DNA from: a virus
Virus genome (UHGV): UHGV-1577189
DNA: 16,327 nucleotides
Strand: one strand, 5' to 3'
How positions within the stretch are numbered: the stretch's first letter is position 1; every line of letters starts with the position of its first letter. The notes beneath the pieces were generated by a model. The model was not told the origin of the DNA and did no database searches. It saw only the letters and a list, made by a program, of their open reading frames with translations. The position numbers were made by a program, and so were the translations under genes. Positions 7,999 to 13,762 of this stretch are shown piece after piece.

Positions 7999-8017
7999 TT
8001 AACGAACTCCAGTTAAA

Positions 8018-8135
8018 ACCACGATATGTGGTATTAAAACCACATATCGTGAGTTTTTCAATGGGCGAAACAAAAAATAACCTTCTATTTGTGGTCCACC
8101 TCTCGTCTTACCATGTGAAAACCACTAAATGTGGT
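8018..8135. promoter_or_regulatory. Operator cluster between divergent cro-like and cI-like genes
   Basis: ACCAC-GATAT-GTGGT (8018-8032), ACCAC-ATATC-GTGAG (8039-8053, imperfect), ACCAC-TAAAT-GTGGT (8121-8135), all in A-rich context. Confidence 0.6.
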
Positions 8136-8172: not shown

Positions 8173-8829
8173 ATGAAAAGCAACGACGAGAACATCAAGA
8201 AAGAAATAGGTCTGCGCATTCAGACTCTACGGAAACAATCCGGCATGACTGCCGGAGATCTCCAGCAAGTCACTGGAATAGGCTTAAGCACCTTGCAGAA
8301 CTATGAGGCCGGATTAAGACAACCATCGATACCTGCCATCAAGAAAATCGCGCACGCCCTGAAAGCATCAGCGCCTTATATCGCGTGCTTAACAGATAAC
8401 CCGTTCCCACCCCAGAATACTAACGCTCCTGTTATTCCTGGGCTTGTAGCTATAAAAAATGACATAGCATCGCACGCCGGAGAAAAGCCAGTGCTGGCGA
8501 TAGAACAGGAGATTCTACGAAGCAAGAACATCAACCCATCGTCTCTGTCAGTTCTCCAGAGCAACGATGAGTTAATGTCACCAACAATATCCCCTGGCTC
8601 CCAAGTCCTGATTAATACAGACGATACAGAGATTCATGAGGGGATCTATGCCCTTGAAGACAGAAATGGCCTGGTTGTTTTGAGGCACTGTAGAGTCATA
8701 CCGGGTGACAATGCTGTTATGCTGTCAACCGAAAGGGATGCTGAAATGAACACTAAGCATCTGAATAACGAGGAATTTAAGCGTTATAAAGTTCTTGGCC
8801 GCGTAGTTAGTGTTGTCAACTGGTTATGA
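8173..8829 (+). CDS. CI-like phage repressor: N-terminal HTH_XRE plus C-terminal S24 (LexA-like) domain
   Basis: 218 aa; HTH LRKQSGMTAGDLQQVTGIGLSTLQNYEAG; C-terminal beta-rich domain with an Ala-Gly dipeptide (SHAGEKP) and conserved Lys (RYKVLGRVV); catalytic Ser context is atypical (ELMSP). Confidence 0.8.
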   Translation: MKSNDENIKKEIGLRIQTLRKQSGMTAGDLQQVTGIGLSTLQNYEAGLRQPSIPAIKKIAHALKASAPYIACLTDNPFPPQNTNAPVIPGLVAIKNDIASHAGEKPVLAIEQEILRSKNINPSSLSVLQSNDELMSPTISPGSQVLINTDDTEIHEGIYALEDRNGLVVLRHCRVIPGDNAVMLSTERDAEMNTKHLNNEEFKRYKVLGRVVSVVNWL

Positions 8830-8871
8830 TACACAGCACGGCGAAAGCCGTGCATTTCTACGCTCAAAAAA

Positions 8872-8886
8872 ACCACATTATGTGGT
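8872..8886. promoter_or_regulatory. Fourth ACCAC-N5-GTGGT operator (ACCAC-ATTAT-GTGGT) between the repressor gene and the next ORF
   Basis: Same palindrome family as 8018-8135; followed by TTGACA (8888-8893) and RBS AGAGG before the ATG at 8922. Confidence 0.5.
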
Positions 8887-8921
8887 TTTGACAACATGTA
8901 AAAGTATAAAAGAGGCTACGC

Positions 8922-10718: not shown

Positions 10719-10733
10719 ACCACATCTTGTGGC
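10719..10733. promoter_or_regulatory. Isolated operator-like site ACCAC-ATCTT-GTGGC
   Basis: Same ACCAC-N5-GTGG architecture as the immunity-region operators, but about 1.8 kb away, between two hairpins. Confidence 0.35.
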
Positions 10734-10792
10734 TCTTACGGTATATAAGCTACTGCAATGGTAAACAGCTATCAAATGCAGGTTGCAGTAAA

Positions 10793-10812
10793 AAAGGCCC
10801 CCGAAGGGGCCT
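10793..10812 (-). terminator. Rho-independent terminator for the small peptide gene
   Basis: Stem AGGCCCC/GGGGCCT with loop CGAA; a T-run follows on the minus strand. Confidence 0.5.
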
Positions 10813-10817
10813 AATCG

Positions 10818-10940
10818 CTACTTGCTGCTAATGTTTATCGTCACATTCAGAGCGTTATCAGTAATCTTCCAACCCTCCCCATGTGGCGTAAACAAAGCTC
10901 CAGTAACAACGATAAAAATACACATGTAGTATTTTTTCAT
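10818..10940 (-). CDS. Small hydrophobic peptide (40 aa: MKKYYMCIFIVVTGALFTPHGEGWKITDNALNVTINISSK), candidate type I toxin-like membrane peptide
   Basis: ATG at 10940 with RBS AAGGG 8 nt upstream (the track start at 11000 is TTG); Lys-rich N-terminus then a hydrophobic segment; terminator immediately downstream. Confidence 0.4.
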   Translation of the reverse strand: MKKYYMCIFIVVTGALFTPHGEGWKITDNALNVTINISSK

Positions 10941-11219
10941 TGTGTGGCCCTTACAGGCCGTTTCACGGCATCCCCACCGACGAAAATGACGCGAGAGCAA
11001 GCACGCTGTTTGTGCCTGCGTGGTACGGCAAGTGGATAATCCTTTCCTGAAAGTCAGTGCCCGGGTGCGAATCGGCGGAAAGGCCCCAAGCCATATTACA
11101 CGTCATACCCTTCATAATGAAGGAATAAAAAACGCTTTTATTACATGAGATTACACGTAAATAAGTTAAAAACCTTCATTTTGCATGAGCTAATGAGCTA
11201 AATTTTTTTATATGAATAG

Positions 11220-11352
11220 TGGACTATTCACCTCAGTTGGGTAAGAATGTAGTTGCTGTTTGTGCTTGCGTGGTTGTATTAGTACAACGACGTTATGCTG
11301 AAAGGACCGCGAATCCGATCAGCACGAAAGAACCGTCCTCAATAGGGCGGTT
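11220..11352 (+). ncRNA. Candidate small RNA ending in a rho-independent terminator
   Basis: Terminator ACCGTCCT-CAAT-AGGGCGGT followed by T7 (11325-11352); carries a 20-nt copy (11255-11274) of a sequence at 11005-11024; possible promoter TTGCAT at 11181-11186. Confidence 0.35.
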
Positions 11353-11429
11353 TTTTTGTTTCTGCCTACCAATAAACCCACGCTATGTGGTTGTCTCTGT
11401 TAAAATCCCTCTGTATTGACATAAATGCG

Positions 11430-11528
11430 CCATTGGTGGACACTTTCCGAGCCGTAGCAAAATCTACGGTCGGGATTGGAACCCCGATAATCATCATGGC
11501 GCATACCGCGTTAGCGGTTTTTTTATGC
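11430..11528 (+). ncRNA. Candidate c4-like antisense RNA of an immI-type antirepressor module
   Basis: Three consecutive hairpins (CCGTAG/CTACGG; TCGGG-ATTGGAA-CCCGA; ACCGC-GTTA-GCGGT plus T7) upstream of a small ORF and ant; the loop GATTGGAACC recurs in the leader hairpin loop at 11638-11647. Confidence 0.35.
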
Positions 11529-11689
11529 GTAAAGCACTGCTACACCCAAATTATGGTGGGGCGTGCGGGGGAGTCGTAAGACTCGCCGGATTCCATGGTG
11601 ACCGGTAGTTCCAACCCTGTACGTCTCACCACCCAATGATTGGAACCAGACGGTGGTGAGTATCCTTAACCTTTAAGGGAACTATCACC

Positions 11690-11881
11690 ATGACAAACTT
11701 ACCCCATGACTATTACGTCAACCTCGTAAAGATCCTTCTCAAGAAAGCCTCATACGCCGATAAATTCCGCCTGGCTGAAATCATCGAGCGCGAAGCTATG
11801 CGCATCGCCAGCAACGATAACGCTGTTTCTGACGCAAAAATCTCCCTCGTAACCAAAGTAGTTATGGGAGGTGCAAAATGA
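11690..11881 (+). CDS. Small ORF (63 aa) translationally coupled to ant (icd-like position)
   Basis: RBS TAAGGGA; its stop overlaps the ant ATG (ATGA at 11878-11881); preceded by a 9-bp-stem leader hairpin at 11625-11662. Confidence 0.45.
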   Translation: MTNLPHDYYVNLVKILLKKASYADKFRLAEIIEREAMRIASNDNAVSDAKISLVTKVVMGGAK

Positions 11882-13023
11882 AAACGCTTCCGACCGTTAA
11901 CACCCTACAGCCTATCCTGCATAACCAAATCCCTGTCATTACTACCGAGTTACTAGCACAGCTTTACGGCACTGAGCCGGTGCGTATTCGCCAGAATCAT
12001 CATGAGAACAAAGCACGTTTCGTTGAAGGGAAACACTTTTTCAAAGTTGTTGGTAATGACCTTAAAGAATTGCGGGTAGCTTTAAACTACTCTCAAAATC
12101 CAGTTTCACCTAAAGTCCGCTCCCTCATCCTCTGGACAGAACGCGGGGCTGCACGTCACGCTAAAATGCTCGAAACCGATCAGGCGTGGGATGTATTCGA
12201 ACGGCTGGAAGACTGCTACTTCAACCAGAACGCGCAAACGGCCGCGACCGTAACCGTCTCACCAAACAATGCTCGTGAGGTTGTCGATACGCTCAACGCT
12301 AAACCAATGTATTACATTAAGGTGTGCAACAACGAGCCACTCACAACCTCAGCCGATGTTGCCCAGGCATTCAGCACCACAAACAATTCCATCGTTATGG
12401 CCATCGATGCGTTACGCATTCCTCGCACAGCTGCGGCGCGTCACTTCTTTAAAGAGCAACGACCGCTGGAAGGAAGCGACCGCGAAATAACAATCTATCG
12501 CATGACAAAAGACGGATTTACCTTGCTCATGGAGAGCATCGACGGTCCAAGCGTGAAAGATATCAAGCTGGCCTACATTGAAGCCTTTAACGCTATCAGC
12601 AGCGTGTTAAAAACACAGTACGAGCGTGATCTGGCTAAACGACTATACCAGGAAAAAACGATTATCCGCGCGGCAACAGAGCATAATCGGCTATTAACGG
12701 AACCGAACTACAGGAAGGAACTAATCAAGGAGTTTGACAAGGCAACAGGGAAAACCAAAGCGGCGCTAAGTCTGCCAGCAATGACTCAGGAAAATGTGAT
12801 ATCAGCCTTACTTCTTGATCTGCTCAGAAACGCCAGAGCACTTATCAGCTTTGACGAAAACCTGAATCCTCAGCTCAAGCTACTACCACCGACAGGCAAA
12901 GTAGTCGACCAAGCAGAACACAACAGCATACTCAGCGTACTGGATGCAAACCTGCCAGCCAGGACACTACAGGATCTGATAAAAACATGTGCTGATAAGC
13001 TGGCACAGAAAAGCAGACCATAA
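11878..13023 (+). CDS. ant: Phage antirepressor Ant
   Basis: 381 aa; N-terminal ITTELLAQLYGTEPVRIRQNHHENKARFVEGKHFFKVVGNDLKEL and SLILWTERGAARHAKMLETDQAWDVFERLEDCYF match the antirepressor N-terminal domain; RBS GGGAGG. Confidence 0.8.
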   Translation: MKTLPTVNTLQPILHNQIPVITTELLAQLYGTEPVRIRQNHHENKARFVEGKHFFKVVGNDLKELRVALNYSQNPVSPKVRSLILWTERGAARHAKMLETDQAWDVFERLEDCYFNQNAQTAATVTVSPNNAREVVDTLNAKPMYYIKVCNNEPLTTSADVAQAFSTTNNSIVMAIDALRIPRTAAARHFFKEQRPLEGSDREITIYRMTKDGFTLLMESIDGPSVKDIKLAYIEAFNAISSVLKTQYERDLAKRLYQEKTIIRAATEHNRLLTEPNYRKELIKEFDKATGKTKAALSLPAMTQENVISALLLDLLRNARALISFDENLNPQLKLLPPTGKVVDQAEHNSILSVLDANLPARTLQDLIKTCADKLAQKSRP

Positions 13024-13028
13024 CTACA

Positions 13029-13060
13029 AGGGGCTACGGCCCCTTACTCTTTTCTCTCTT
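13029..13060 (+). terminator. Rho-independent terminator after ant
   Basis: Stem AGGGGC/GCCCCT with loop TACG, followed by a T/C-rich run. Confidence 0.55.
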
Positions 13061-13762
13061 ATCAACACCAGAGACTTTCTGAAAATCCTTTCGAATAGCG
13101 TCAGCGTCACGCGCCAAGCCCATACTCGAACGTGTCGCCATATGACGAAAATGATCAACTGCCGGAAACAAAGAAATAATGGACCCAATAGCTTGCAGCA
13201 AACTCGCTTTTCTACGCATCATAATTCCACCATAACCGATAGCCACCCTTCAGACACAACCCCCCCTCCCCCCATACAGGGTGCCCTTTACCGGAGTTCC
13301 GGCCCCTTCTCAAAAGCATCAAAAAAAGCTCGAGATCGAGTACCGGAACTCATGCCACCAGATAGCTCCACATCGTTTCCAATGCTTCGCCGCCGTGTGC
13401 GCCCTGTGGCCCACAATCATGCCATTGGTCGTCTGATATACCTTCTTCTGCTCATTGAGCACAGGCGAGTTGTCGCACTCCTGCCTTTCTCAGACTCGAC
13501 TTAGTTTAGATCGCTGTTCCTAGCTTGCGTCAGCACACTTTCCCCTTGTACGCATACCCGCGCGCCACTCCGCCCAAAAACACCGAACCCAACGAAGTGG
13601 CAAAGACAACGACGCGAGCGTGAGTCTGAAACAGGCACCAGTAAAAAAGGGGTTGCAGGCGCAAAAAGATTTGATTATCTTTAGACGCAAGAAAGCCGCC
13701 CCAATCAAGAGGTGTCTTTTTAAATCCAGCCTACCAAGCAAGATTTAAATTTCAGACTGAAA

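Follow-up and report, generated by a model that had tools for sequence, protein, structure and literature searches.

The stretch analyzed here, the 16,327-nt viral genome sequence UHGV-1577189 (the window), is a member of a family of circular, non-mobilizable phage-plasmids of about 48 kb from Escherichia coli, whose gene content includes RepA, ParA, P2-like tail genes and a CI-like repressor of the helix-turn-helix (HTH)/S24 type (8173-8829). All positions refer to the window, and labels L001 to L038 denote comparison sequences fetched for this work. On the plus strand we find an IsrK-type RNA (11451-11525), a C4 antisense RNA (11549-11636), a leader hairpin (11625-11660), an open reading frame of 63 codons (ORF63, 11690-11881) and ant, an antirepressor-type gene (11878-13023), with a terminator-like hairpin (AAGGGGCTACGGCCCCTT and a T-rich tail, 13028-13055) closing the operon. 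This region is very likely a C4-type antisense-RNA anti-immunity operon that controls an antirepressor on a P2-tailed phage-plasmid. An earlier account made from the letters alone, the sequence-only reading, had already noticed the pieces, and every feature that it listed is present with coordinates within 1-2 nt, but it swapped the roles of the two RNAs.

Two structured RNAs precede the antirepressor gene

The upstream RNA is of the IsrK/seqA/c4-a1b1 type. It contains three hairpins (11451-11470, 11471-11486 and 11505-11518), the last of which is followed by TTTTTTT (11519-11525) to form an intrinsic terminator, leaving a 24-nt gap to C4. The Rfam isrK model (RF01394) matches at 11451-11524 with 70.2 bits, against a gathering score of 50. 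The sequence-only reading had assigned three hairpins and a seven-T terminator to 11430-11528; the hairpins and the T tract are there, at 11451-11525, whereas 11430-11450 belongs to the probable promoter and not to the RNA. Its proposal that this RNA is a c4-like regulator does not hold, as the RNA matches isrK instead and the real C4 lies at 11549-11636.

There, the Rfam C4 model (RF01695) matches over its full length (model positions 1-87) with 84.3 bits (E = 1e-15; gathering score 45). The covariance-model search that the sequence-only reading had suggested thus did return C4, but between its candidate RNA and its leader hairpin. C4 folds into a 17-bp closing stem, two hairpins and a single-stranded junction, with a minimum free energy (MFE) of -44.3 kcal/mol and a z-score of -4.57; none of 200 shuffled sequences was as stable. 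Two segments are available for pairing: b' (CCAUGGUGA, 11593-11601; the loop segment is also written CAUGGUGA) in the loop of hairpin 2, and a' (GUUCCAA, 11608-11614) in the 3' junction. In P1, the closing stem of C4 is tRNA-like, ends in a 3' ACC and is acted on by RNase P. With the ends annotated for P1 C4 as a guide, the mature RNA is predicted to span 11555-11633 (79 nt). Excision of the RNA from its transcript is probable, the visible signs being an acceptor-like stem and a 3' CCACC that is invariant in the 17 loci compared below.

The C4 loops are complementary to sites on both sides

Each C4 segment has a partner upstream and another downstream. The a' segment can pair with a1 (UUGGAAC, 11476-11482), in the loop of hairpin 2 of the IsrK-type RNA, and with a2 (UUGGAAC, 11640-11646), in the loop of the leader hairpin. 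The b' segment, whose matches the sequence-only reading had missed, is complementary to b1 (UCAUCAUGG, 11491-11499), just 3' of hairpin 2, and to b2 (UCACCAUG, 11685-11692). These four matches are 7-9 bp long. In shuffled sequences each of them arises singly at a rate of 0.7-4.8%, while all four together appeared in 0 of 20,000 shuffles.

The sequence-only reading had instead built on the 10-nt GATTGGAACC, which it saw in the loops of both its candidate RNA and the leader hairpin. This sequence does occur exactly twice in the window (11474-11483 and 11638-11647), and the near-complement that had been pointed out, AGTTCCAACC, is present at 11607-11616, where it belongs to the real C4. Because they have the same sequence and not complementary ones, the two copies of GATTGGAACC cannot pair with each other; by their complementarity to it, both are targets of the C4 RNA at 11549-11636. 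Taken singly, the 10-mer repeat was not statistically significant in a search of the whole window, so significance rests on the joint test and on covariation.

We assessed covariation in 17 loci, namely the window and 16 fetched sequences that include P1, D6, Gifsy-1, ST64B, phiP27, Stx phages, P88 and two Klebsiella phages. Every one of the 16 has an isrK or c4-a1b1 match followed by C4. The a':a1 and a':a2 pairings are Watson-Crick at 7 of 7 positions in all 17 loci, even though 9 different a sequences are represented. The b sites fall into about 15 types, vary independently of a and remain complementary. Mean duplex energies were -8.8/-8.9 kcal/mol for cognate a pairings versus -6.1/-5.9 for non-cognate ones, and -11.2/-11.5 versus -6.4/-6.9 for b, an advantage of about 3-5 kcal/mol for cognate duplexes.

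We then extended the comparison to 20 further loci. Within the plasmid family that carries ORF63, where the protein is 90-100% identical, at least five a/b combinations exist, each compensated at all sites: UUGGAAC with UCACCAUG (the window type), UUGGAAC with CACAAUG, UUGGCGU with UCAUCAUGA, UUAGCCU with CACAAUGAC and UUGGCGU with CACAAUGACAAAC. Expressed as specificity types, the window is UUGGAAC/CCAUGGUGA, and others are UUGGCGU/UCAUGAUGA and UUAGCCU/CAUUGUGU. In close family members b2 always lies over the ORF63 AUG though its sequence changes (UCACCAUG, UCAUCAUGA, CACAAUGAC). The automatic b2 picks in L019, L027 and L030 were discarded as spurious GU-rich matches to the GGUGGUGA box described below, the true b2 being UCACAAUG over the AUG, and the a/b sites of L033, L034 and L036 were read by eye only. 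Matches at the level of the Rfam gathering scores, together with covariation across the 17 and the 20 loci, show that the module is more than a chance arrangement. Compensated a/b changes within one family are also the pattern expected for heteroimmunity of the P1/P7 type.

C4-type RNA genes may also go under other names in the sequences that we compared. At the two most divergent ORF63 loci (L033:1379-1464 and L034:1376-1460), the upstream RNA scores as sRNA-Xcc1 (RF02221, 70-76 bits) and not as C4, which suggests that the two Rfam families describe the same kind of RNA. Annotated "proteins" start inside the C4 gene in L020 (678-965), L021 (693-980), N15 (gene 32; L038:8083-8373, minus strand) and Gifsy-1 (orf45; L003:2505-2642). 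In relatives of the window, the "ash family protein" called by the Prokaryotic Genome Annotation Pipeline (PGAP) is ORF63 extended upstream into C4. Because the Pfam family Phage_ASH (PF10554) matches residues encoded by the 3' half of C4 and the leader (26.1 bits), part of the Ash model, if not all of it, seems to represent an RNA gene read as protein.

The leader hairpin is an alternative to the outer C4 stem

The perfect 9-bp stem that had been noted before the ribosome-binding site of the 63-residue ORF is formed by CTCACCACC (11625-11633; RNA CUCACCACC) and GGTGGTGAG (11652-11660; RNA box GGUGGUGAG), has an energy of -16.1 kcal/mol on its own and holds a2 in its loop. It is not the independent element that the sequence-only reading took it for. 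The hairpin and the C4 closing stem share one strand: 11625-11633, the 5' arm of the hairpin, are the last 9 nt of the 3' arm of that stem, so the leader hairpin is an alternative fold that excludes the outer part of the C4 stem. Position 11633 is, by analogy, also the 3' end of mature C4. The modeled leader hairpin therefore requires a transcript that has not been processed, and it displaces the outer C4 stem. A fold forced to contain the hairpin is about 3 kcal/mol less stable than the MFE structure (-59.6 versus -62.4 kcal/mol). Over the 17 loci, 86% of cells in the leader helix are paired, compared to 31-63% when the helix is slid, and 3 of its pairs show double changes. The 3' arm of the hairpin is a GGUGGUGA(G/U) box that follows a2 in all loci.

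Once C4 is removed, predicted folds pair this box with UCACCAU, which comprises b2 and the AUG. The ORF63 translation-initiation region (11663-11692) also carries a 7-bp hairpin (11663-11679) whose 3' arm contains the Shine-Dalgarno (SD) sequence AAGGG (11675-11679), and b2 (11685-11692) includes the AUG at 11690. In these models the SD hairpin and the box:UCACCAU helix would occlude the initiation region in cis, in addition to its being a target in trans. We considered whether the GGUGGUGA box is a universal anti-start-codon element and rejected the idea, as it pairs with b2/AUG in the window, Gifsy-1, SW-37, TL-2011b and Kp020009 but not in all loci.

The window also holds three near-repeats, in the b' loop (CAUGGUGA, 11593-11601), the C4 5' arm (UAUGGUGG, 11553-11560) and the box (GGUGGUGA, 11652-11660), and their partner segments lie at 11491-11499, 11625-11633 and 11685-11693. 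With three such near-repeats, the start-codon region could in principle pair with three different partners. Predicted precursor folds within about 3 kcal/mol of each other use different combinations of these pairings.

ORF63 is a constrained gene that overlaps an antirepressor gene

ORF63 (11690-11881, plus strand) encodes a small protein at the position of P1 icd, and its TGA overlaps the ATG of ant in an ATGA at 11878-11881, just as the sequence-only reading had described. The same reading had also treated it as the counterpart of icd, and this part fails: ORF63 does not match the Icd model (NCBIfam NF033153), to which P1 Icd itself scores 52.6 bits. We found no Pfam or NCBIfam match of any kind, and tblastn with ORF63 returned the same phage family only. 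The protein is a full-length match to phrog_7886 (E = 2e-47), with homologues in 39 clusters, all from Enterobacterales. Nucleotide differences from homologues at codon positions one, two and three number 3/3/19, 7/4/29 and 19/7/37, homologues retain the ATGA overlap with the next gene, which is of the ORF6N or Rha type, and a C4-type RNA lies about 50 nt upstream in 14 of 14 homologous ORF63 loci. We regard ORF63 as a real coding gene under constraint. Its AlphaFold model is a three-helix bundle (predicted local distance difference test score, 81.7) for which Foldseek found no match in the PDB.

Ant (381 aa; 11878-13023, plus strand) is a composite of an ORF6N domain (aa 12-97; Pfam 72.7 bits, threshold 27.8) and a Rha domain (aa 156-240; Phage_pRha 48.1 bits, threshold 29.9), followed by about 120 C-terminal residues that carry no annotation. 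It matches the anti-repressor PHROG families 2379, 1760, 4792 and 377. Over aa 1-115 it shares 53% identity with Gifsy-1 AnrP (E = 1e-48), and both proteins match phrog_2379; with P1 Ant1 it shares matches to phrog_63 and phrog_1726 through an ORF6N/Bro-like domain. Expression of AnrP induces Gifsy-1 (PMC4825925). By this homology, Ant may act against a prophage repressor. We presume that its target is the CI-like protein (8173-8829), but the repressors of other prophages, which the sequence-only reading had also named, may be targets instead.

Compared to L001 and L018-L022, Ant has a hypervariable, indel-rich segment (11960-12135, aa ~28-85) flanked by the nearly invariant MKTLPTVNTLQPILHNQIPVITTELLA and RSLILWTERGAARHAKMLETDQAWDVFERLEDCYF. 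This segment may be a specificity determinant for the target repressor.

A putative promoter and putative operators would connect the module to the CI-like repressor

Upstream of the IsrK-type RNA we place a putative sigma-70 promoter (11416-11444, plus strand) with a -35 TTGACA (11416-11421), a 17-nt spacer and a -10 GACACT (11439-11444), from which transcription is predicted to start near G11451. The assignment is probable on the strength of positional conservation, since 14 other phages, Gifsy-1 among them, have this -35/17-nt/-10 geometry at the equivalent place before isrK. A possible second promoter on this strand, with the extended -10 TGtTAAAAT (11398-11406), would be overlapped by the operator.

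An operator-like inverted repeat, ACCCACGCTATGTGGT (11376-11391), lies 25 nt upstream of the -35 hexamer of the main promoter. Its core, CCAC-N5-GTGG, occurs exactly 6 times in the window versus 0.15 times expected, and three of the sites cluster in the divergent intergenic region beside the CI-like gene. The longer form, AACCAC-N5-GTGGT, is listed at 1617-1633, 8017-8032, 8039-8054, 8120-8135, 8871-8887, 10719-10734 and 11376-11391. The block containing the last of these is kept in relatives up to a recombination junction, which in L001 falls immediately upstream of the repeat. We propose that these repeats are probably operators of the CI-like repressor, one of them just upstream of the IsrK/C4 promoter. 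The arrangement resembles that of P1, where the GenBank record places a C1 operator at the c4 promoters.

The module belongs to a known type of RNA switch

The P1 record lists a1, b1, c4, a2, b2, icd and ant1 with a 4-nt icd/ant1 overlap, and the window has the same order and an overlap of the same length. Both are plasmid prophages, both place a' in the 3' junction and b' in the loop of hairpin 2, and specificity diversifies through a/b changes in the window family as it does in P1/P7 heteroimmunity. Other aspects differ. ORF63 is unrelated to Icd, Ant is linked to Ant1 only by the domain-level PHROG match, the upstream element scores as isrK rather than as c4-a1b1, and b2 lies over the AUG instead of the SD, at 49 nt from C4 compared to 29 nt in P1. 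Of the P1-type c4-icd-ant control inferred by the sequence-only reading, what survives is a C4-controlled antirepressor operon on a plasmid prophage with a stop/start overlap; the identity of the regulator RNA, the presence of icd and the role of the hairpin do not.

Gifsy-1 provides a genetic precedent in its isrK-orf45 (STnc1160)-anrP region, where, as in the window, an IsrK with a terminator is followed about 25 nt downstream by a C4-type RNA and then by an antirepressor gene, and where the GGUGGUGA box again follows a2. After we numbered the Gifsy-1 transcript (L003 2399-2584), 10 of 10 published positions matched, and the published compensatory pairs G28A/C162U and G31A/C159U fall exactly on a1:a', the pairing between hairpin 2 of IsrK and the junction of C4. 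When IsrK was provided in trans, translation of anrP rose 139-fold (PMC4825925). Unlike the window, Gifsy-1 is a lambdoid chromosomal prophage and does not have a separate leader gene: orf45 starts at a conserved AUG in the C4 5' arm and runs to anrP. In the window, the frame opened by this AUG (11553) closes after 8 codons and the distinct ORF63 is present, and our Rfam scan found no isrJ downstream. In a review from 2025, IsrK and c4 are still treated as two separate systems.

The immA region of N15, a phage-plasmid, has the same order of parts (CA RNA, icd, antA/antB). In our scans, isrK, C4, small ORFs and an Ant gene lie at 27.0-28.5 kb of N15, where the annotated gene 32 overlaps C4, and no C4 was found in bases 36000-46375. 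N15 carries icd and is a linear siphovirus, whereas the window element is circular with a P2-like tail module. As cited in two later papers, Ravin et al. (1999) described an N15 small RNA processed from the operon leader and control by premature termination (PMC3632133, PMC4488713). In the immunity region of P4 (seqA, CI RNA or seqB, and seqC), seqA and CI RNA are the Rfam structural homologues of IsrK and C4, respectively (PMC3632133, PMC10111431), and as in the window a single RNA has pairing sites on either side of it; P4, however, controls replication genes through termination and not an antirepressor, and we found no P4-like genes in the window. Earlier work recognized IsrK and C4 together as an immunity system common to P4, P1, P7, N15 and lambdoid prophages (PMC3632133), and the Rfam IsrK and C4 models have already been used to annotate such loci (PMC10111431). 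The window module thus belongs to a well-known type of RNA switch, and what is particular to it is b2 on the AUG and not the SD, ORF63 in place of icd, and an Ant composed of ORF6N and Rha.

A model for control of ant and its alternatives

We propose the following mechanism, for which the direct experimental evidence comes from relatives (P1, Gifsy-1, P4 and N15). Transcription would begin at about 11451, and most transcripts would probably stop at the U7 terminator to yield an IsrK-like RNA of about 75 nt that carries a1 and b1. Read-through transcripts would contain C4, the leader, ORF63 and ant, and C4 (11555-11633) would probably be excised from them, as in P1. Pairing of a' with a2 and of b' (CAUGGUGA) with b2 (UCACCAUG) would then mask the ORF63 start codon and block ribosome loading, and the SD hairpin and the GGUGGUGA:UCACCAU helix of the leader would add to the block. 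Because the ant start lies in the ATGA overlap with the ORF63 stop, an untranslated ORF63 would turn ant off through lost translational coupling and probably through Rho-dependent polarity. Since a1 and b1 bind the same C4 loops, they would most likely let C4 feed back on its own transcript, like P4 seqA. If the short RNA became abundant, its a1 and b1 would titrate C4 and switch ORF63-ant on, like over-expressed IsrK in Gifsy-1, and Ant would then inactivate the prophage repressor.

Several observations weigh against this account or against parts of it. Mutating a1 in cis in Gifsy-1 raised expression and did not lower it (PMC4825925), which implies that a simple decoy role for a1/b1 is incomplete. 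BLASTP produced no alignment of ORF63 with P1 Icd and no pairwise similarity between Ant and P1 Ant1, so the genetics of P1 transfer by analogy of layout only. The Rfam c4-a1b1 model (RF03163) matches at 11438-11490 with 38.2 bits (E = 5e-8), short of the 46.7 bits set as its gathering score, even though the sequence does contain both a1 and b1. Additionally, ant has a strong SD of its own (GGAGG, 11867-11871) inside ORF63, and coupling is therefore not guaranteed. Finally, the proposed -10 is weak, and a scan of 11100-13300 with a consensus promoter model reported no site.

A credible alternative, though one that we judge somewhat less probable than not, is that the logic of Gifsy-1 dominates: read-through RNA would be silent through its own folding, the IsrK-like RNA would be the trans-activator and excised C4 would be secondary. 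In the MFE structure of the full 11451-11720 transcript (-100.8 kcal/mol), the C4 loops are paired in cis to the middle of IsrK, and both the SD and the AUG are buried; the predicted fold of the leader alone buries them as well, and Gifsy-1 genetics back pairing of IsrK with the C4 region both in cis and in trans. Yet the window's version of orf45, read from its AUG in the 5' arm of C4, has just 8 codons, so the Gifsy-1 route of coupling is absent. The strict conservation of the C4 fold and its 3' CCACC and the perfect a2/b2 covariation argue for an excised C4 that acts on the leader, as in P1. These two modes are not mutually exclusive.

It is less likely still that C4 pairing at a1/b1, a2/b2 or both mainly causes premature transcription termination, the mode of control for which P4 CI RNA and N15 CA RNA are described as termination factors (PMC3632133, PMC10111431). 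Here b1 abuts the IsrK terminator, a competing nascent hairpin (11497-11513) shares 3 nt with b1, and in Gifsy-1 the output of a transcriptional fusion rose 8-fold when IsrK was supplied in trans (PMC4825925). We considered this hairpin as a C4-sensitive antiterminator opposing the IsrK terminator and retain it only as part of the termination alternative, since it is weak (-5.9 to -6.7 versus -8.0 kcal/mol) and not evidently conserved. Prediction of intrinsic terminators found none between C4 and ant, a b2 site on the start codon is the signature of a translational block, and termination could simply be a consequence of the translational block by way of Rho polarity, an effect that has been reported for P1.

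The version put forward by the sequence-only reading, in which the terminated three-hairpin RNA at 11430-11528 is itself a c4-like antisense regulator acting on the leader hairpin through the shared loop, is highly improbable: that RNA is structured, terminated and directly upstream, and has GATTGGAACC in common with the leader loop, but the complement of this sequence lies in the intervening C4, the upstream RNA scores as isrK, and the corresponding upstream sites of P1 are annotated as the targets a1 and b1.

Distribution and neighborhood of the module

The module is found beyond the window. Segment 11440-11700 is 100% identical in the isolated Yersinia phage vB_YpM_39, and segment 11360-11900 is present at ≥80% coverage in 73 of 5,426 complete E. 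coli genomes (about 1.3%). In all, three isolated Yersinia phages carry the locus; a literature search on vB_YpM_39, 41 and 44 found nothing. Among E. coli strains, ATCC 25922 is a carrier, with plasmid NZ_CP009073.1. Our database hits number 258 for plasmids and 135 for E. coli. We give next to no credence to the idea that the plasmid is a passive carrier of a decayed, non-functional remnant of prophage immunity: in some relatives PGAP annotates no more of ant than its Rha half, and ORF63 is disrupted in L035, but all parts are intact in the window, the distribution just described includes an identical copy in a Yersinia phage, and compensated specificity changes within the family imply ongoing selection.

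The E. albertii plasmid (L001:12140-12712) and the Yersinia phages have an extra insertion of about 0.67 kb with an HTH gene, located between a ryfA-like locus and the operator and promoter of the C4 module. In the window, the ryfA-family RNA (10790-11088, minus strand; Rfam 134.6 bits) contains a hydrophobic ORF of about 40 codons (beginning MKKYYMCIFIVVTGALF). Divergent from it, on the plus strand, is a candidate for a terminated RNA (~11220-11358); its GCUGUUUGUGCUUGCGUGG (11253-11272) and the part of the ryfA RNA that 11005-11024 encodes are complementary. The two RNAs, which immediately precede the C4 module, resemble the timP/timR (ryfA) type I toxin-antitoxin pair.

Implications for the phage-plasmid family

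Public RefSeq records of the module annotate only a "hypothetical protein" and an "ORF6N domain-containing protein" and leave the RNA genes unannotated, so our analysis supplies a functional annotation for this locus. It also joins the genetics of Gifsy-1 IsrK to the classical a1:a' pairing of P1. The known principle of C4/CI-type control is unchanged by the window module.

A more speculative interpretation, which we consider doubtful but worth stating, is that the leader is a multi-state RNA relay, C4 a direct mask of the start codon, the a/b types anti-immunity incompatibility groups and ORF63 a new small effector. Three near-identical GGUG-type segments (UAUGGUGG, CAUGGUGA and GGUGGUGAG) may compete for the CACC-type C4 3' arm, b1 and b2/AUG; excision of C4 or binding of IsrK may switch the start codon between cis-masked, trans-masked and accessible states; and b' may carry an invariant anti-AUG "CAU". 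If this relay exists, ORF63 would replace Icd, and the at least five a/b specificities among phage-plasmids of 48 kb that are about 95% identical would govern which relatives, co-resident or incoming, induce each other. The occurrence of differing, compensated RNA specificities in a single phage-plasmid family predicts that its members fall into heteroimmunity classes.

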